NCBI GenBank assembly: GCA_963664305.2
Contig: CAXXLV010000002.1
Location: 1,632,001 to 1,696,000 of the forward strand
From: an uncultured Aliarcobacter sp.
GTDB lineage: Bacteria > Campylobacterota > Campylobacteria > Campylobacterales > Arcobacteraceae
Direction of reading: 5' to 3'
DNA: 64,000 nucleotides
Shown piece after piece: positions 8,935 through 17,693 of the stretch. The notes beneath the pieces were generated by a model that was given only the letters and a program-made list of their open reading frames with translations, was not told the DNA's origin and searched no databases. How positions within the stretch are numbered: position 1 is the first letter of the stretch; every line of letters starts with the position of its first letter. The translations under genes were made by a program, and so were the position numbers.

Positions 8935-11064
8935 TCAATTATCTTTCGTTTCATTTGATAAATATTCATACAAATACAAATATTGTCTTAACTCTTTTAG
9001 GCTTTCAAGTTTAATTCCCTCTTCTATCCAAGCTTTAATATTTGAAGGAATTTCAAGTGGTTTTAATAACTCCTCTTTCTTCTTTTTTGAAATTTTTTCA
9101 TGTTCTGCTAATACTGAAATATGACCCAGAATTGAAGTTAATCCTAAATCTCTAATTTGTGCAATTTCTTCTACACTTTTTCCTTCATTTAAAAGTTCAT
9201 AAGTTTCAAGATATGTTTTTGTGAGTTTCTTTAATGGCTCTTTATTTTGTAATTTTTCTTTGTATTCTTCTTTTATCTCTTTAGATAAATTTAAAAAATC
9301 TTCTCCATATTTTTCATACTTTACAAGACCAACACCATTTATATTTAACATATCATCTTTTGTTATTGGAAGTTTTAAAGCAAACTCTTTTAAAGTCTTA
9401 TCACCAAAAATAACATAAGCTGGAACTTCATGTTCTAATGCAATCTCTTTTCGTAAAGTTCTAAATCTTTCGTAAATCAACTCATCAAAACTCAGTTCTG
9501 TTTCTTCCTCTTGGATTTTTGAAGCTACACCTAATTTATCACTATCTATAAAAAGTTTCTCTTTTCCTTTTAATATTTCTAATCCTAAAGAGCTTATTTT
9601 CAAAGCTCGAAATTCCCCTAAATTTAAAGCTTCTATATCTATTAATTTATCAGCAATTGCTATCCATTCATTTTTACTTTTATCAATTCCTAGATTATAA
9701 ACACTTAATTTATCATGTTCTAACTCTAAAAGTTTTTGATTTTTTGAACCCCTTAAAATATCTATGATGTGATTTAGTCCAAATCTTTGTTCACTTCTAT
9801 AAATAGCACTTAAAAGTTTTTGAGCATCAACACTTACATCTACAAGTTCAACTTCACCTTTTGTACAGTTATCACATAGAGTTTTACAAGCTTCAATCTC
9901 ATCTTCAAAATAACCTGCAATCATTTTATGACGACAATTATTACTCACACAATACCTATACATAAATTCCAATTTATCAAGGGCAGTTTGTTTGTATTCA
10001 TCATCAATAGCTTCTTCGATTTGTATTTTTCTTTTTACCTCATCACTTTTTGAATAAAGCATATAAACATAAGACATTTCACCATCACGCCCTGCCCGAC
10101 CGATTTCTTGATAGTAATTTTCAAGGGTTTTAGGTAAACTTGTATGTATTACAAAACGAATATTTGATTTATCAATTCCCATTCCAAAAGCGATGGTTGC
10201 TACTACAATATCTATTTTTTCATATACAAAATCATTAAAAACTTCATTTTTTCTGTCACTACTAAGCCCTGCATGATAGGCTTTTGCACTATATCCATTT
10301 TCACTCAAAAACTCTGCTGTTGATTCTGCTTCTTTTCTTGTAAAAGTGTAGATGATTCCACATAAACCTTTGTGAGTTTTTAAGAAGTTTAGTATTTGAG
10401 TTTTTCCGTTTGCTATTCGTGGTTCTACTTTTATATCAAGATTATCTCTTACAGTTTTTGCTCTAAAATGTTTTGGATTTTGTAAATTCAAAGATGAAGC
10501 AATATCAGCTTCAACTTTTTTTGTAGCAGTTGCAGTAAATGCACAAATTGAAGTATTTGGGAAAAATCTTTTTAGTCTATCAAGATTTCTATACTCAGCT
10601 CTAAACTCATGTCCCCAAGCAGATACACAATGGGCTTCATCTATTACAAAATAGTTTATATTTATTCGCTGTAAAACTGCTACGAATTCATTTGAAGTAA
10701 ATCTTTCAGGTGCAACATAGATAAATTTTAACTCCCCATTTAAAAGCTTTAGAAGAGTAAAACTATTTTCATCATTTGAAGTTGCTGAACTAATCATATC
10801 TGCACTAATATTTAAATCATTCAGAGCTTTTATCTGGTCTTGCATAAGTGCAATAAGAGGAGAAATTACAACAGTAGTTCCTTCCATAAGAAGAGTTGGA
10901 AGTTGATAACAAAGTGATTTTCCTCCACCTGTTGGCAAAATTGTCAAAACATCTTGTTTTGCAAGAATTGTATCAACAACTTCTTCTTGGAAAGAACGAA
11001 AAGTATCGTGTCCGAAAATATCTTTTAGTATTTGGTATTTTTTATTCATTTTGGATGGTAACAT
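8935..11064 (-). CDS. recQ: ATP-dependent DNA helicase RecQ (start may be the ATG at 11049)
   Basis: PTGGGKSLCYQ, DEAHCVSAWGHEFR, QEIGRAGRDG, plus RQC and HRDC (VPAYVIFGDKTL) domains. Confidence 0.95.
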   Translation of the reverse strand: MLPSKMNKKYQILKDIFGHDTFRSFQEEVVDTILAKQDVLTILPTGGGKSLCYQLPTLLMEGTTVVISPLIALMQDQIKALNDLNISADMISSATSNDENSFTLLKLLNGELKFIYVAPERFTSNEFVAVLQRININYFVIDEAHCVSAWGHEFRAEYRNLDRLKRFFPNTSICAFTATATKKVEADIASSLNLQNPKHFRAKTVRDNLDIKVEPRIANGKTQILNFLKTHKGLCGIIYTFTRKEAESTAEFLSENGYSAKAYHAGLSSDRKNEVFNDFVYEKIDIVVATIAFGMGIDKSNIRFVIHTSLPKTLENYYQEIGRAGRDGEMSYVYMLYSKSDEVKRKIQIEEAIDDEYKQTALDKLEFMYRYCVSNNCRHKMIAGYFEDEIEACKTLCDNCTKGEVELVDVSVDAQKLLSAIYRSEQRFGLNHIIDILRGSKNQKLLELEHDKLSVYNLGIDKSKNEWIAIADKLIDIEALNLGEFRALKISSLGLEILKGKEKLFIDSDKLGVASKIQEEETELSFDELIYERFRTLRKEIALEHEVPAYVIFGDKTLKEFALKLPITKDDMLNINGVGLVKYEKYGEDFLNLSKEIKEEYKEKLQNKEPLKKLTKTYLETYELLNEGKSVEEIAQIRDLGLTSILGHISVLAEHEKISKKKKEELLKPLEIPSNIKAWIEEGIKLESLKELRQYLYLYEYLSNETKDN

Positions 11065-11109: not shown

Positions 11110-12447
11110 CTAATACATTTGAATATCCTTTTCCATTTCTTTAATACTTTTATAAATTAATTTATTAAATATATATTCAATTTCATTAGATTTGACATTT
11201 TTCAAATTAAAAATATCAATTAATATCTCTCTTTTTTCATCTTTTGTTAAATCTGAAAAATTTGGTATATATTTTGTATTTGTTCTATTTTTTAAAATCT
11301 CAAAATAAGTTCGAATAAATTTTTTAACTTCTTTTTTATCATATTCAATATTGAATTTTTTAAACATATTTAATATAAAAGTATCTAATCTAAATAAAAG
11401 AGTGGTGTCATTGATTTGAGAGAAAAAATATAACCAACCATATTTTTTACCTTCAAATTTACAACCAGTAATTTTTAAATTTAATTTCCAATATAAAAAA
11501 TTTATATTTTGTTCTTTTGAATGTTTATACTGTGTGAAAATATTTATTATTGATGTATGCAAGTTATCGATAGAAGATTTTCTAACTGATATTAAATTAT
11601 TACTATATGAATAACCTAGGAAATAAAAAGTATCACTTAAACTTCCTATCTCAGTTTTATCTTTACTTTTCCCTATTTCATGTATTTTTAAATCTAAATT
11701 ATTCATATCATTTTCTAACAATTTAAATACACTAAATGTATCTTGTTTATTACATAGAATTAATATATCATCAACATATCTAAAGTATTCATAGTTTATT
11801 TGGGAAGAATGTTTCTTGTCAAATTCTATAAAATAAATTGAAGCAAGTATATTTGATATTGATAGTCCTTGAGGTACACCTTTGTTATTAGAATATTTTT
11901 CAATATATCTATTACTTTTATTTACCGTTTCTTGTTTTATTGATTTGATTAATAAATCTGTAAATTGAATTTTTTTAGTTCTTTTATATAGAAATTTAAC
12001 TAATATTTCATGATTTATAGAGGGATAAAAATTTTCTATATCCGTTTTAATATAGCTATCAAATTTACCACTTTGAATACTTGTTTTTATTTTATTTATT
12101 TTTGAATGAATTAATTCATTTGTTAATTCCTCTTCAAATATCTCATTCAATGTATTAAAAATAATTTTTAGTACTATTTTATCTCTTATTGTAGGAATTG
12201 AAATTATTCTTGGAAATTTATTTTTACCTTTTGAAATTAATTTTTCTTTATAAAATGAAAAATTATATGTTTTATTCAAAATTTTCCTATTTATTAATTC
12301 AAACTCAGAATTTTGTTTTTTTTCATAACTTTTAATATTTATGCCATCAATTCCTATTGATGGCTTATTCTTAATAGTATCATCAAAAACTTTTTTTATA
12401 TTTTTTATTTTGATATTTTTATTAAATATCCTGAATGGATATTTCAT
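11110..12447 (-). CDS. Reverse transcriptase, DRT10/UG17-like defence-associated RT
   Basis: GIDG; PRIISIPTIRDKIV; motif A KTDIENFYPSINH; motif B GVPQGLSISNILASIY; motif C YFRYVDDILI (YVDD at 11767-11778); FLGY; C-terminal YGWLYFFSQIND. The RT call is firm; the subfamily is inferred from the SLATT and ncRNA context. Confidence 0.9.
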   Translation of the reverse strand: MKYPFRIFNKNIKIKNIKKVFDDTIKNKPSIGIDGINIKSYEKKQNSEFELINRKILNKTYNFSFYKEKLISKGKNKFPRIISIPTIRDKIVLKIIFNTLNEIFEEELTNELIHSKINKIKTSIQSGKFDSYIKTDIENFYPSINHEILVKFLYKRTKKIQFTDLLIKSIKQETVNKSNRYIEKYSNNKGVPQGLSISNILASIYFIEFDKKHSSQINYEYFRYVDDILILCNKQDTFSVFKLLENDMNNLDLKIHEIGKSKDKTEIGSLSDTFYFLGYSYSNNLISVRKSSIDNLHTSIINIFTQYKHSKEQNINFLYWKLNLKITGCKFEGKKYGWLYFFSQINDTTLLFRLDTFILNMFKKFNIEYDKKEVKKFIRTYFEILKNRTNTKYIPNFSDLTKDEKREILIDIFNLKNVKSNEIEYIFNKLIYKSIKEMEKDIQMY

Positions 12448-13007
12448 TGAAAAGATATACTTACAATTAAAATAATAACTGGAAGTATGACTAAAAAGAA
12501 AAGTGTAACAAAATCTCTAATTTTATACATCCATCTTTTTACACTTTTTTCAAATGTCCATTTTCCATTAATTTCTTCATACTTTTTTTGGTTTCTAACT
12601 TCATGCATTACTTGTAAATAATCATTTTCCGAATGATTTTCTGTTAAACTAATTATCATATTATATTGATTTTTCAAATCACTATAATCTTCTTTATTAT
12701 TTTCTTTTTTGAGAATATCATCATATAATTTTGCCATCAGTACATATGATGTTTGAAGTATCAAGGCTCTTTCTTTATAATTCATTGCAAAAATAAAAAT
12801 TGATACTATAACTATCAATATAGATAAAATTAATGTTAATATTTCAAAATTTATATTTTCACATTTAATATCAACAATAGTAATTGCAATTATAAAAAAA
12901 GAATAATATGCAATCAATATTTGAGAAATTAAATCATTTCTCTTAAATCTTTCAGAAGTATTAATTCTAGATTTTCTTGTTTTCCATACATTATCACTAA
13001 AAGCCAT
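12444..13007 (-). CDS. SLATT-domain membrane protein (SLATT_5-like), putative effector
   Basis: N-terminal WKTRKSRINTSERF followed by two hydrophobic helices, a helical soluble segment ending in ENHSENDY, and a C-terminal TM helix. AGGGA RBS; ATGA overlap with the RT gene. Confidence 0.75.
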   Translation of the reverse strand: MAFSDNVWKTRKSRINTSERFKRNDLISQILIAYYSFFIIAITIVDIKCENINFEILTLILSILIVIVSIFIFAMNYKERALILQTSYVLMAKLYDDILKKENNKEDYSDLKNQYNMIISLTENHSENDYLQVMHEVRNQKKYEEINGKWTFEKSVKRWMYKIRDFVTLFFLVILPVIILIVSISFQ

Positions 13008-13031
13008 ATAAAGTCCCTATTAAAGTTAAGA

Positions 13032-13159
13032 GTAAAGTTCCCAAAAAATTAGTTTAAAATGTCTTAAAATAAGACCTATAAATAAAATGTAAACATTTAT
13101 TAATTAGTTATGTTTCAAAAGTGAAACCTATCTTTTTGTAGAAAGATAAGGAACTTTAC
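13032..13159 (-). ncRNA. Putative RT-associated structured ncRNA (~128 nt)
   Basis: Perfect 10-bp terminal inverted repeat (gtaaagttcc 13032-13041 / ggaactttac 13150-13159) enclosing four hairpins, immediately upstream of SLATT-RT and just downstream of a TATAAT box. Confidence 0.75.
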
Positions 13160-13165
13160 ATGATT

Positions 13166-13171
13166 ATTATA
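13166..13171 (-). promoter_or_regulatory. Sigma70 -10 box for the ncRNA-SLATT-RT transcript
   Basis: TATAAT on the minus strand, 6 nt before the first G (13159) of the ncRNA terminal stem. The region is AT-rich, so a chance match is possible. Confidence 0.55.
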
Positions 13172-13310
13172 TTTTAAAACTAATAATAATTAAATAAAAA
13201 TTATTTTTATATCTAAAGTTTTATTTAATCAATTTTTTAAATAAAGTGAAAATACTAATTTTATTATTTATGATATATATCGAGAATGCAAAAACACCCT
13301 CAATATAAAA

Positions 13311-13913
13311 TTATTGTCTTTGTTTCATTTGATGATTTAAGAACTCTTCTTTACTAATATTTCCATCTTTATTAGTATCTATATCTGAAAATGATGGTTG
13401 ATTATCAATATTTTTCATCATTCTTCCTTCAGATAGTTTTTCTTCCATTCTTTTCTCTCTAGCTTCTTCCATCTCTTTAGTACTAATCATTCCATCATGA
13501 TTCATGTCATAATTTTCAAAACTTGGCATATTAAAATGTTGTCCCATTCCTTGACCCATCATACCTTGCCCAAAGCCTTTGTTTCCTTGATTAAGTTGCA
13601 TTTGTTTATTTTGACCTTTTAATAACTCTATTTCAGTCAATTTTCCATCTTTATTTGTATCAAACATACTAAAATCTGGAGCATTATCTATATTTCTCAT
13701 AGGCATTCCTGCTTCTTGTTTTTGCTCCATTCTTTGTAGTCTAATATCATTGAACTCTTTTTCACTTACAAATCCATCTTTATTTGTATCATAAGTTGAG
13801 AATTCTATCGGACCTCGATTTGATATATCTTCTGCATTAACAGTGCTTATCATAATAGATAAAGAACTAGCAACAACTAAACCTAATTTAACTGTTCGTG
13901 ATAAATTTTTCAT
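13311..13913 (-). CDS. Secreted EF-hand repeat protein
   Basis: Four DxNxDG loops (DTNKDGFVS, DTNKDGKLT, DMNHDGMIS, DTNKDGNIS); signal peptide ending VNA-E; an AGGA RBS supports the ATG at 13913. Confidence 0.8.
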   Translation of the reverse strand: MKNLSRTVKLGLVVASSLSIMISTVNAEDISNRGPIEFSTYDTNKDGFVSEKEFNDIRLQRMEQKQEAGMPMRNIDNAPDFSMFDTNKDGKLTEIELLKGQNKQMQLNQGNKGFGQGMMGQGMGQHFNMPSFENYDMNHDGMISTKEMEEAREKRMEEKLSEGRMMKNIDNQPSFSDIDTNKDGNISKEEFLNHQMKQRQ

Positions 13914-13982
13914 TATCTCATCCTTTTTATTTAGATGATTCATTCTACTCTTTATTTAATATAATTACCATAACTTAATTTA

Positions 13983-15275
13983 TTATTTTAAAACGACTTT
14001 TACTTTATCTAAACTATTTGTGTTAGCAAAGTCATTTATAAGAGTTGCTAATTGTAAAACATCACTATTTTTCATTCTAATACAACCAGCTGATTCATTT
14101 GTACCAATTGTTTTTTCATTTAAAGTTCCATGTATTCTATATGTACTTTTTCCATCAACAATATGCGTAAGATTTATTTTAGCTGCACCCATATAGTTAT
14201 ATTTATCTCCAGGAGGTACAACAGAAGGAAGATTTATTCCTCTTTTTCTAAAACTTTTTATTGTATCAGCTGTTGGATACCAAACTGGGTTTAAAGAAAT
14301 TTGAGAGATTTTTCCAACACCAAAAGGTTTTTTTACATCATCTTTTCCAGTTGAAACTCTGTAAGTTTTTATCTCTTTTAAATGGTCATCTATTTGAGCT
14401 TTTACTGTCATATAATTTGTAACAGAATTTACTTCAATAATAAGTTGTTGATAATCTGAAATATTTGCTTCAATATCTTCTTCAACTTCTTTTAAAGGTG
14501 TAGGTTTAATTTCTTCTTTTTTAGGTATCTCTTTTTTGATTACTTTTGGTTTTTCATAACTTTTTGTGATTTTTTGAACTTTTTCTTTTTTTTCAAGTTG
14601 CTCATTCGCTCTATCAAATTCATCCATACTGATTTGTCTTAACTCTTCTTCGTATGAAGCAATTTTTTCATCATTTTCTTTTTCTTCTTTAGCACTCTCT
14701 TCTTTTGCTAAAGGTACAACCTCCTCTTTTATTTCTGGTTTTTCTTCCACATCTTCATCATCTACAAATCTTTTTCCCTCAGCAAATGGATAAGAACTAA
14801 CTAATTTAAACTCTTCTGTATTTGGAACAGCAGAAACCAAAGGAAACTCTTCTACTTTTTTTAAAGGAACAGTTACTTCATTTTCTTTTGGTATTACTGT
14901 TTCAACTATTTCTTGTTGAATTACTGAATCTTCTAAATCAATATAAACTTTTTTATTGTTCTCTTTTAATTTTAATACTTTTTCTTCTAACTCTTTTACA
15001 TAAGGTTTTTGTTGTTTTACATAAGTTGAAGAATTTTTTATAGTTTGATTAGCAATTTTTTTATCATCATAAACATTTAAATATGTAAAATATCTATTCT
15101 TATCTTTTACAATAAGTACTTCTGCATTCATACTATCTAGTATTCGTTTTTTACAAGTTAATGCATTTTCTAGATTTGAAGTTACACAAACTGAAATAGT
15201 ATATTTTTGCGTATTTGCAAAAACAAAAGAACTATTAAAAATAATAAATAATAAAGTTAAAATTTTTCTAATCAT
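13983..15275 (-). CDS. L,D-transpeptidase (YkuD family)
   Basis: YRIHGT...ESAGCIRMKN catalytic motif; signal peptide; Glu/Lys-rich linker. Confidence 0.85.
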   Translation of the reverse strand: MIRKILTLLFIIFNSSFVFANTQKYTISVCVTSNLENALTCKKRILDSMNAEVLIVKDKNRYFTYLNVYDDKKIANQTIKNSSTYVKQQKPYVKELEEKVLKLKENNKKVYIDLEDSVIQQEIVETVIPKENEVTVPLKKVEEFPLVSAVPNTEEFKLVSSYPFAEGKRFVDDEDVEEKPEIKEEVVPLAKEESAKEEKENDEKIASYEEELRQISMDEFDRANEQLEKKEKVQKITKSYEKPKVIKKEIPKKEEIKPTPLKEVEEDIEANISDYQQLIIEVNSVTNYMTVKAQIDDHLKEIKTYRVSTGKDDVKKPFGVGKISQISLNPVWYPTADTIKSFRKRGINLPSVVPPGDKYNYMGAAKINLTHIVDGKSTYRIHGTLNEKTIGTNESAGCIRMKNSDVLQLATLINDFANTNSLDKVKVVLK

Positions 15276-15428: not shown

Positions 15429-16655
15429 ATGTTCATGTTCACTGATGATGATTTTATTGAACTTAACTCAAAATTTTACACAACTTGTAAACCTCAATCA
15501 AGAATTTTTACACTACTTACTGTACCTGCTGCTTTATTTGCAATTGTATTAGTATGTTATTTAGGATTTTTGCCTTTAAAAGTTGAAATTCACAGTGTTG
15601 TTTTAATCGGTTTTATATTTTTCATTTACCTATTCTTTGTAAAACACAATGCCTATTTTGTTTCTTGTAAATTTAAAACTCAATATTCAGAATTGGTTTT
15701 TTATCTAAAAGAATATATCAATAAAAACTTATTAACAATTGGTGAAACAACTAAAGCAAATGGAAGTGTTGATGACTTTTTAAAAGACTATACAAGTAAT
15801 ATAAGAAATACAAATTTCTCTTCAATCGCTTCTGGAATTTTCCCAACACTAGGAATTTTAGGAACATTTATCTCTATTGCATTTAGTATGCCTGATTTTA
15901 CTTCTGGAACAACAAGTGCTTTAGAATCTGAAATTTCAAAACTTTTAGGTGGAGTTGGAACTGCCTTTTATGTTTCAATTTATGGTATTTTCTTATCAAT
16001 TTGGTGGATATTCTTTGAAAAAATTGGAATGAGTAGATTTGACCATGATACTTTTGTAATCAATGAAAATACTAAACATTTTTTCTGGACAAAAGTTGAT
16101 ATTGAATCAATTCACATAAAAAGTAATTTAGATAACTTTACAAAAATGAGTGAAGTATTTAATCAATTAACATCAAGCAATATTTTAGAAAATATTAACT
16201 CTTCAATCGAACATAGATTTGAAGTTTTAGAAGAGATATTAAAAAAAGAGCTAATTTTATCTTCTAAAATTGCAGAAAATATTGATAATAATGAAAGATT
16301 ATCAATGATGTTAAAAGATATGACTTTAAATATGCAAACGACAATAAAAAGCTTTGAAAAACAAAAAGATTTATATGCTTTAAATGCAGAATTATTAAAT
16401 GCAAATATTGAAAAATTAAATTCTCACATGGGGAACTTAAGTTCAGATAATTTAAAAGCAATTTATACAAATATTGTAAAAAGTATCGAAACTATGAAAA
16501 GTGATATGGAAAAAATTGAATGGAAATTTAAACAAGGTCTTGAAGAGTATGATGAAAATATTACTTTTAGATTGAAAAACTCTCTTGAGTTAATAGATGA
16601 AGAGACTACAAAAATCATAAAAGATTTTAAAGAATTTAAAGAAATATCAAAGTAG
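15429..16655 (+). CDS. MotA/TolQ/ExbB-family membrane protein with a long cytoplasmic helical tail (ZorA-like architecture)
   Basis: FPTLGILGTFISI...LLGGVGTAFYVSIYGIFLS channel motif, followed by a ~200-aa helical tail. Confidence 0.75.
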   Translation: MFMFTDDDFIELNSKFYTTCKPQSRIFTLLTVPAALFAIVLVCYLGFLPLKVEIHSVVLIGFIFFIYLFFVKHNAYFVSCKFKTQYSELVFYLKEYINKNLLTIGETTKANGSVDDFLKDYTSNIRNTNFSSIASGIFPTLGILGTFISIAFSMPDFTSGTTSALESEISKLLGGVGTAFYVSIYGIFLSIWWIFFEKIGMSRFDHDTFVINENTKHFFWTKVDIESIHIKSNLDNFTKMSEVFNQLTSSNILENINSSIEHRFEVLEEILKKELILSSKIAENIDNNERLSMMLKDMTLNMQTTIKSFEKQKDLYALNAELLNANIEKLNSHMGNLSSDNLKAIYTNIVKSIETMKSDMEKIEWKFKQGLEEYDENITFRLKNSLELIDEETTKIIKDFKEFKEISK

Positions 16656-16661
16656 TAAAAA

Positions 16662-17693
16662 ATGTACAATAAAGAACAAAAAAATGATGAAAACTTTTGG
16701 ATATCTTATGCCGATTTAATGGCAGGATTACTTTTTGTATTCATCTTAGTAATTGGAGCTATTGTAATAAAATATGTTTATACACAAAGTAATTTAGAAA
16801 AAGAAAAAGCAGCTTTAAACTCAAGTGAAGAGGCAAAATCAAAACTTTTTTATGAATTAGCAAAAGCAAAAAATCTATACGAAACTACAAAAAGTGATTT
16901 AGATAAAGCAGCATCTGAACTAAAAGATAAAGATAATAAAATCTCTTTAAATCTTGCAGAAATTGAAAAATTAAAAGCTTTACTTTTAGAGTATGAATTA
17001 AATGTAAAAGATGAAAAAAGTAAAAATGAGAAGTTATCAGCAGAATTAACTGAAAAAACAAATATGATTAGTTTAAAAGATGAAGAGTTAACTATGCTTG
17101 CTGATAAGTTATTAGTTCAAACACAAATTCATCAAAAAATGGTTGAAGAGTTTGATATAGCAAAAATCAAAATCAAAAACTTAACAGGTATAAAATTAAC
17201 TGTTATTGCAAAACTAAAAGAAAAACTTGGAAAATCAATTAATATAGATGAAAAAAGTGGAGCTATAAAATTCTCTTCAAATATTTTATTTGACCAAAAC
17301 TCTTATATTTTAAAAGAAGATGCAAAAAAAGAACTAAGTAATACTCTAAAAAAATATTTGAATACTTTGCTTGGCGATAAAGAGATGAAAAAATATATTG
17401 AAAGTATTACTATTGAAGGACATACAAATAGTGATGGAACTTATCTTTCAAATCTTTCATTATCTCAACAAAGAGCACACGCAGTTATGCAGTTTTTATA
17501 TGATTCTAATATCATAGATAAAAATCTTTTATCAACTTATGTAAATTCAAGTGGAAGATCTTCTTCTGATTTGATTTTAAATAAAGACGGAGTTGAAGAT
17601 AAAGATGCTTCAAGAAGAATAGAGATTAAATTTACAATAAAAAATGAAGAAGCTATAAGAGAAATTCAAAATTATTTAGGTGAGAAAAAATAA
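16662..17693 (+). CDS. MotB/OmpA-family protein (ZorB-like)
   Basis: FWISYADLMAGLLFVF (conserved Asp in the TM helix), coiled coil, and peptidoglycan-binding domain IEGHTN...NLSLSQQRA...SRRIEI. Confidence 0.85.
   Translation: MYNKEQKNDENFWISYADLMAGLLFVFILVIGAIVIKYVYTQSNLEKEKAALNSSEEAKSKLFYELAKAKNLYETTKSDLDKAASELKDKDNKISLNLAEIEKLKALLLEYELNVKDEKSKNEKLSAELTEKTNMISLKDEELTMLADKLLVQTQIHQKMVEEFDIAKIKIKNLTGIKLTVIAKLKEKLGKSINIDEKSGAIKFSSNILFDQNSYILKEDAKKELSNTLKKYLNTLLGDKEMKKYIESITIEGHTNSDGTYLSNLSLSQQRAHAVMQFLYDSNIIDKNLLSTYVNSSGRSSSDLILNKDGVEDKDASRRIEIKFTIKNEEAIREIQNYLGEKK

Follow-up and report, generated by a model that had tools for sequence, protein, structure and literature searches.

The window, by which we mean the whole stretch of 64,000 nt analysed here, carries on its minus strand a gene for a UG17 reverse transcriptase (RT) directly preceded by a gene for a SLATT_5 effector. 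The two ORFs (13007..12444 and 12447..11110) overlap by 4 nt at the SLATT_5 stop and the RT start, and overlapping genes are how Sanchez-Nieto et al. describe the SLATT-RT arrangement. The match of the RT to the PADLOC model RT_UG17 spans residues 6-444, with the next best PADLOC model at 1e-39, and its active site is intact, with YVDD at residues 224-227 in columns that are invariant across 39 homologues. Between the 187-aa SLATT_5 ORF and the gene for an EF-hand protein (13943..13311) lies a gap of 303 nt, which holds two look-alike hairpin modules within a structured RNA that ends 24 nt before the SLATT start codon. As described by Tang et al. (PMC12632851), the DRT10 defence system consists of a UG17 RT, a SLATT protein and an upstream ncRNA; in the E. 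coli systems the ncRNA has been experimentally mapped at the same position upstream of SLATT, and phage protection was demonstrated there to need the ncRNA, SLATT and an active RT. Judged by gene content and order, the ncRNA, the SLATT_5 gene and the UG17 RT gene at this locus (Table 1) make up a complete, intact DRT10 module. It is an added member of the family from a very AT-rich genome, and the closest relatives of its RT bear Sulfurimonas and Arcobacteraceae record titles.

Membership in DRT9 (UG28), DRT2 (UG2) or DRT3 (UG3+UG8) was considered and rejected: the RT scores 1.8e-28 on PADLOC Drt3a, 5.6e-18 on Drt2 and 7.5e-14 on RT_UG9_small, compared with 6e-153 on UG17, and UG28 is absent among the best 25 of the 34 PADLOC families listed for it. 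A sequence search of the PDB with the RT returned no DRT10 chain, the top matches being group II intron and retron-type RTs at approximately 1e-12. A prediction of the RT homodimer (score 0.01, mark 0.42) counts neither way on binding.

Two neighbouring loci also drew matches to defence models. At 15429-17693 on the plus strand, 2.3 kb from the DRT10 module, a MotA/ExbB-like gene (408 aa) and an OmpA/MotB-like gene (343 aa) form a pair that matches PADLOC ZorA (3.2e-14) and ZorB1 (3.9e-59), the ZorA-like protein falling far short of the ZorA profiles in length. Immediately downstream of the RT, the gene at 8935-11064 (minus strand) encodes a full RecQ helicase with DEAD, Helicase_C, RecQ Zn-binding, RQC and HRDC domains and scores 2.6e-193 on the PADLOC DpdF models; because this domain set fits a housekeeping RecQ, the DpdF match is probably cross-talk between families.

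Table 1. Features of the DRT10 locus, in the 5' to 3' order of the minus strand, with the basis for each
Feature	Positions	Strand	Basis
Putative -10 box, TATAAT	13166..13171	-	Perfect match read from the sequence; ends 7 nt ahead of the RNA's first paired G
DRT10 ncRNA, 128 nt, bounded by closing stem SL1	13032..13159	-	Fold, covariation, R1 score of 113 bits
SL1 5' arm, GUAAAGUUCC	13150..13159	-	Pairs with 13041-13032; 11/11 pairs of helix 1 with two-sided changes
SL2 (UAUCUUU / AAAGAUA)	13129..13148	-	Fold; helix 2 covaries at 7/7 pairs
Conserved unpaired G directly 5' of SL3	13128	-	G in 92% of 26 distinct rows (partly circular, see text)
SL3 (GUUUCA cuuu UGAAAC), hairpin of module 1, 5' anchor of Loop A	13112..13127	-	Helix 3 covaries at 7/7 pairs
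Loop A, 13 nt, AUAACUAAUUAAU; short and conserved in sequence	13099..13111	-	1.17 bits per column (inflated, see text)
SL4 (AAAUGU uu ACAUUU), 3' anchor of Loop A, symmetry partner of SL1	13085..13098	-	Helices 4 and 5 covary
Linker UAUUUAUAG, 9 nt, vestigial counterpart of SL2, ends in AUAG	13076..13084	-	Hairpin in relatives
Second conserved G, at the end of the linker	13076	-	G in 88% of rows (partly circular, see text)
SL5 (GUCUUA uuu UAAGAC), hairpin of module 2	13061..13075	-	Helix 6 covaries at 7/7 pairs
Loop B, 19 nt including its first A and last unpaired G; predicted template of tandem-repeat cDNA	13042..13060	-	Eco3 Loop B likewise 19 nt
Favoured A-B-A' candidate, UAA-AC-UAA, 5-nt unit	13049..13056	-	Inferred from position homologous to the repeats of L012-L014
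SL1 3' arm, GGAACUUUAC, 3' anchor of Loop B	13032..13041	-	MFE fold, RNAalifold, covariation
SLATT_5 two-transmembrane effector gene, 187 aa	12444..13007	-	Pfam PF18160 2.3e-29; PADLOC RTasSLATT 3.2e-44
UG17 (DRT10) reverse transcriptase gene, 445 aa	11110..12447	-	PADLOC RT_UG17 6e-153; Pfam RVT_1

The RNA runs from the 5' arm of SL1 through SL2, an unpaired G, SL3, Loop A, SL4, the linker, SL5 and Loop B to the 3' arm of SL1, and is closed by a stem of 10 bp that pairs GUAAAGUUCC with GGAACUUUAC. Its minimum free energy fold has a z of -4.4, and none of 200 shuffles folds equally well. The putative -10 box is missing from a consensus promoter scan because no -35 match accompanies it; any transcription start placed from it is likewise putative. 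Rfam holds no family over the RNA; within 12000-14000, at E ≤ 10, we found just four chance-level matches (E 1.4-5.2), none of which lies in the RNA. A covariance model of the RNA, R1 (described below), finds it as the single match in the window's own genome. The plus strand of the same interval (13032-13159) gives a weak match to R1 (17.5 bits, E 0.88), as expected of an RNA built mostly of near-palindromic hairpins.

A sequence-only reading of this stretch had described the two modules as an internal duplication in the ncRNA. Re-reading the minus strand, we recovered the same coordinates, the same letters and the same two compensated stem differences. Module 1 (13131-13102) reads ATAG GTTTCA cttt TGAAAC AT AACTAATT, the AUA of its AUAG coming from the 3' arm of SL2, and module 2 (13079-13047) reads ATAG GTCTTA ttt TAAGAC ATTTTA AACTAATT. 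The stems of SL3 and SL5 differ at 2 of their 6 pairs, with Watson-Crick pairing retained in both. Within so AT-rich a stretch, the plain likeness of the modules is not beyond chance: a gapped self-alignment of 13158-13032 (127 nt, the RNA less one base) scores 22, a value reached or exceeded by 62 of 300 dinucleotide shuffles. We also searched for a composite pattern, in which two perfectly paired hairpins, 6 bp or longer, are each preceded on the 5' side by an identical 4-mer and each followed, within 16 nt on the 3' side, by a common 8-mer. None of 20,000 shuffles contained it, and the module pair is its sole instance on both strands of the 64-kb window, although these figures overstate its significance, because the pattern was defined after the data had been seen. 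The further argument that covariation is visible within this one molecule is partly circular, since differences between two hairpins are compensated by definition; we therefore took independent support from other genomes.

A protein search with the RT found 1657 relatives at E ≤ 1e-20 among 7992 scored candidates, with identities of up to 95%. The DNA loci compared comprise 80 from genomes and at least 80 from metagenomes; few of the metagenome loci listed are close relatives, and while RT homologues of 76-95% identity exist in the protein search, none of these loci comes from them. Five loci, L012-L016, whose RTs are 52-72% identical to that of the window, align with it across the whole RNA, and for these six RNAs RNAalifold returned 37 pairs, 20 of them with compensatory changes. 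The same six RNAs were used to build R1. At E ≤ 1, the model gave 25 matches in the first 100 sources and 14 in the other 62, two of the latter being the window itself, on either strand. At E ≤ 0.05, it gave 30 matches among 33 re-searched sources. All 30 lie on the strand of the RT, and 27 end 583-743 nt upstream of the RT match (coordinates read by hand), a gap of the size of a SLATT gene. The matches include Bacillota, Chloroflexota-like and archaeal MAG loci, and none of the Pseudomonadota loci compared.

A few loci are arranged differently. The R1 matches at L049:2304-2454, L070:2326-2464 and L111:657-786 end 23-47 nt before the RT and are not upstream of SLATT, which suggests an RT-SLATT gene order or a missing SLATT gene. 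An order-level search of 401 genomes added one locus, on the same contig as L015. Among 41 genomes of the same genus or order, one of the same genus (G002) holds a UG17-like RT, 45% identical and with one in-frame TAA (L002, 1501-2748); no SLATT-sized ORF lies upstream of it, and just 5' of the RT is an AT-rich, hairpin-bearing stretch with UUACUAAUAAU. This locus may be a decayed or differently arranged DRT10.

The matches reduce to 26 distinct rows. Across these rows, 93.9% of cells pair, a share that drops to 49.9% at most once the partners are slid, and all 37 pairs show two-sided changes, observed values that were reached by 0 of 500 shuffles; these figures are flattered by an alignment that was fitted to R1 and so favours its structure. 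The hairpins SL3 and SL5 each show two-sided changes at 7 of 7 pairs in these homologues, which belong to several phyla. The untuned RNAalifold result for six sequences agrees in direction.

These comparisons bear on the suspicion that two AT-rich hairpins in the leader or terminator region of the SLATT mRNA resemble each other by chance, with no separate RNA involved. The self-alignment score, which is not significant, and the empty Rfam search are what one would expect in that case, and we list beside them that a consensus scan found no terminator-like site. Covariation of the whole fold in the 26 distinct homologues and in the six-RNA alignment argues to the contrary, as do the composite pattern, unique in the window and unmatched in the shuffles, and the mapping of the E. 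coli ncRNA to the same spot. A chance likeness is, in our judgement, scarcely credible.

Loss of the duplication in homologues had been named as the finding that would speak against a two-fold RNA; in the 26 distinct RNAs the layout is retained. Each half consists of a stem (SL2 or, in the second half, UAUUUAUAG), an unpaired G, an anchoring hairpin (SL3 or SL5), a loop (A or B) and a 3' anchoring stem (SL4 or SL1). Of the 26 rows, 24 have a Loop A of 12-13 nt and 25 a Loop B of 17-20 nt. The G is present 5' of SL3 in 92% and 5' of SL5 in 88% of rows; the conservation figures for this flanking G and for Loop A are partly circular, the R1 matches having been chosen by their likeness to the model. 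In L015 the segment corresponding to the linker UAUUUAUAG folds into a hairpin of 4 bp, and in L020 and L023 into a longer one. With a real hairpin in front of SL5 in several relatives, the full form of the RNA would have six stem-loops, three in each half, of which the window has lost one. Gene content, fold, covariation and the conserved layout can all be read directly from sequence.

We also observed, by eye, an ncRNA of six stem-loops with this same layout in a Serratia aquatilis record (L036), approximately 200 nt upstream of a SLATT ORF at 1882 and negative with R1. Its Loop A is UAACUAAUUUUG, which has AACUAAUU in common with the window, and its Loop B holds CACUA-UU-CACUA.

The sequence-only reading had treated the sequences flanking the two hairpins as identical. 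This holds for the AUAG/G flank, which is kept on both halves in the homologues, but not for the shared AACUAAUU: a common stretch of at least 7 nt occurs in both loops in just 4 of the 26 distinct RNAs (the window, L015, L049 and L037). The shared 8-mer is, on this count, particular to the window and not a feature of the family. The likeness between the stem sequences of SL3 and SL5 is likewise a trait of the window's own clade.

Taken together, the two modules are very probably the two pseudo-symmetric halves of the ncRNA of a DRT10 anti-phage system with a UG17 RT and SLATT. Two published structures give this layout its meaning. In Eco1 and Eco3 DRT10, cryo-EM shows two RTs on one pseudo-symmetric ncRNA (Ramirez et al., bioRxiv 10.64898/2026.06.29.735271), and an independent 2:1 complex is described for relatives in E. 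coli by Chen et al. (bioRxiv 10.64898/2026.10.08.757509). According to the latter, two equivalent Gs, located 5' of stem-loops 3 and 5, are flipped out into the equivalent pocket of each protomer, which we take as a direct explanation of the conserved G in both AUAG flanks. Ramirez et al. (10.64898/2026.06.29.735271) report that the two loops of Eco3 behave differently: Loop A (12 nt) yields a product of approximately 10 nt, while Loop B (19 nt), with its A-B-A' template, yields repeats of kilobase length.

The sequence-only reading had proposed two RT-binding sites, with long repeats made on the longer loop and a short product on the other, and homology with E. coli DRT10 supports this picture. 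We infer the stoichiometry, the products and the template unit at the window locus from that homology. One RT monomer would bind each half of the RNA, which would thus scaffold an RT dimer. The monomer at Loop B would copy a short A-B template, melt off and re-anneal through the A' microhomology, following the realignment model established by Tang et al. (PMC12632851), and repeated cycles of copying would give long, protein-primed DNA of tandem repeats, the presumed activator of the SLATT membrane effector. At Loop A, the other monomer would make a short product only. By analogy with the Eco3 elements, SL5 is the predicted 5' template-boundary element of Loop B, and Loop A the predicted template of a short, non-repetitive cDNA. 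The likeness between the halves (AUAG, a G-C closing pair and the A that follows) is best understood as the outcome of selection, with two copies of one protein resting on equivalent nucleotides; an ancient duplication is a possible source of the two halves.

The RNA might instead hold one RT in the lineage of the window, with module 2 (SL5 and Loop B) as the sole working site and module 1 as a scaffold or a relic of duplication. The second half is without a stem mirroring SL2, which makes the window RNA less symmetric than that of Eco1, and the RT is only 40-45% identical to those of the Pseudomonadota loci compared, so that the stoichiometry could differ. However, Eco3, with five stem-loops, is asymmetric as well and still holds two RTs, and a 2:1 ratio is reported in each of two structures, obtained independently from divergent DRT10 systems. 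Nor does a relic sit well with the conservation of Loop A and of the G that precedes SL3, which exceeds that of the other single-stranded parts of the RNA. We consider a single RT per RNA improbable and retain the reading of two RTs on two halves.

Which bases of Loop B would be copied is a question of register. The loop reads A-UUU-UAA-AC-UAA-UUUUUUG and holds, besides UAA-AC-UAA, three candidates of longer period; microhomology of 3 nt or more arises at periods of 5, 10, 11 and 12 alike, and the U6 run permits several registers. The sequence-only reading had pointed to an 11-nt AUUUU...AUUUU pattern. That pattern begins at the anchor base and leaves no 5' linker and a 3' linker of approximately 3 nt, a length against which the deletion data reported for Eco3 speak. 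By contrast, DRT10 template linkers are given as at least 2 nt on the 5' side and 4-7 nt on the 3' side (Ramirez et al., 10.64898/2026.06.29.735271; Chen et al., 10.64898/2026.10.08.757509), and UAA-AC-UAA leaves linkers of 3 and 7 nt. The nearest homologues have their repeats in the corresponding place. Specifically, Loop B reads A-GA-UUAUU-AC-UUAUU-UUCUUG in L012 (L012:1778-1912), A-GA-UUAU-AC-UUAU-UUUCUUG in L013 (L013:211-344), the RTs of both being 72% identical to that of the window, and A-UAA-UUAU-UAC-UUAU-CAAUUG in L014. In all three, the repeats begin 2-3 nt after the first loop base, an A that directly adjoins the SL5 stem. Because its linkers fall in the published ranges and because it agrees with the nearest homologues, the 5-nt unit is favoured over the 11-nt pattern, and the template unit would, with low confidence, be UAAAC, giving a GTTTA repeat.

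The UUAUUAC unit of L012 predicts the same circular repeat as AGTAATA, which was reported as the measured repeat of the distant Escherichia sp. E3659. Between close relatives, A and A' changed together, from UUAU to UAA, around a constant AC. This paired change is natural support for the microhomology model.

The claim that only the second linker carries an A-B-A repeat proved too strong. Loop A reads A-UAAC-UAAU-UAAU, and the window shares period-4 UAA or UAAU repeats in Loop A with 18 of the 25 other homologues. One could accordingly suppose that both loops template repetitive DNA, Loop A through its own 3-nt microhomology of period 4. Homology of 3 nt, and sometimes 2 nt, between A and A' is reported as sufficient (Tang et al., PMC12632851), and in DRT10 the two loops are interchangeable, as are the equivalent hairpins, either site being processive when given an A-B-A' pattern (Ramirez et al., 10.64898/2026.06.29.735271). 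Yet the published linkers would leave only about 4-6 nt of a 13-nt loop, too few for A-B-A', and a loop of A and U only yields short repeats by chance. We give this alternative very little credence, and we keep to a short product from Loop A and tandem repeats from Loop B.

In the clade recognised by R1, no other single-stranded part of the RNA is as conserved as Loop A. Over the 26 rows it averages 1.17 bits per column and Loop B 0.48; leaving out the six rows on which R1 was trained gives 1.12 and 0.47. These figures are inflated by the choice of matches through R1. The core of Loop A, UAAUUAA, stands at 0.69-1.0. The motif UAAU[UC]AA is found in 34 of the 93 unique regions that lie upstream of SLATT; the opposite strand has it in 6 of 93, and the regions downstream of the RT in 4 of 88. 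A pattern of 17 nt taken from Loop A also matched 15 viral contigs, none of which has an R1 match, and we rejected these as chance matches.

The published in vitro work, as far as its accounts of the loops go, reports few or no base-specific contacts between RT and loop and free exchange of loop sequences (Ramirez et al., 10.64898/2026.06.29.735271; Chen et al., 10.64898/2026.10.08.757509). It is the conservation of Loop A despite these properties that leads us to propose a sequence-specific role in vivo for the loop or its cDNA. That Loop A or its short cDNA is not a mere by-product is a tentative suggestion, and one we think rather doubtful; possible roles would be a constitutive RT-linked oligonucleotide that sets the threshold of activation, or a sensing site. 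The conservation itself may already be on display in published figures (Ramirez et al., Fig. 2b; Tang et al., Fig. 1E). It is strong, is unaccounted for by the in vitro results cited, and may merit the attention of specialists. In the window, Loop B has acquired the 8-mer of Loop A, so that the two monomers would be copying one and the same sequence close to the 3' ends of their loops; this shared 8-mer hints at an exchange of sequence between the two loops.

Because the mechanism proposed in the sequence-only reading is already in print, in the 2026 preprints, the window confirms known work and opens nothing new in that respect. What it does show is that sequence alone suffices here to recognise the two-fold layout in print, along with its flanking G anchors and its A-B-A' logic.

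Among known systems, the closest comparison is with Eco3 DRT10. In both, the ncRNA is followed by SLATT and then by the UG17 RT, and the RNA is pseudo-symmetric, with five robust stem-loops closed by SL1. Each loop follows an anchoring hairpin, with lengths of 12 nt for Loop A (13 in the window) and 19 nt for Loop B (approximately 19 in the window), and Loop B carries an A-B-A' pattern. The two RNAs differ in the position of the missing sixth stem, which is in the first half (SL1-SL2) in Eco3 and in the second half (SL4-SL5) in the window. They differ also in the base 3' of the anchoring hairpin, which is an A in the window and the G of a G-G Hoogsteen pair in Eco3, and in the template, which in the window is A/U-rich and ambiguous. 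The ncRNAs of Eco1 DRT10 and of Escherichia sp. E3659 UG17-A have six stem-loops, three on each side of the dyad, with Loop A and Loop B as in the window; compared with these, the fifth stem of the window is reduced to UAUUUAUAG, and its predicted unit (UAAAC) is different.

More distant likenesses are found in DRT9 and in telomerase. DRT9 (UG28), as described, shares with the window system a Class 2 UG RT, a structured ncRNA with a template loop between two anchored stem-loops, and, as predicted for the window, DNA synthesis that is protein-primed and repetitive. Unlike the window system, it forms a 6:6 complex with a conserved poly-U template and a poly-dA product, and is described with neither a SLATT partner nor a two-fold RNA. 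Telomerase RNA likewise combines a short internal template and an alignment segment with a stem-loop as 5' boundary and adds repeats by realignment (Tang et al., PMC12632851). The window system would differ in serving two RTs with one RNA, in protein priming and in its role in defence; the relationship to telomerase is one of analogy, together with a proposed distant ancestry.
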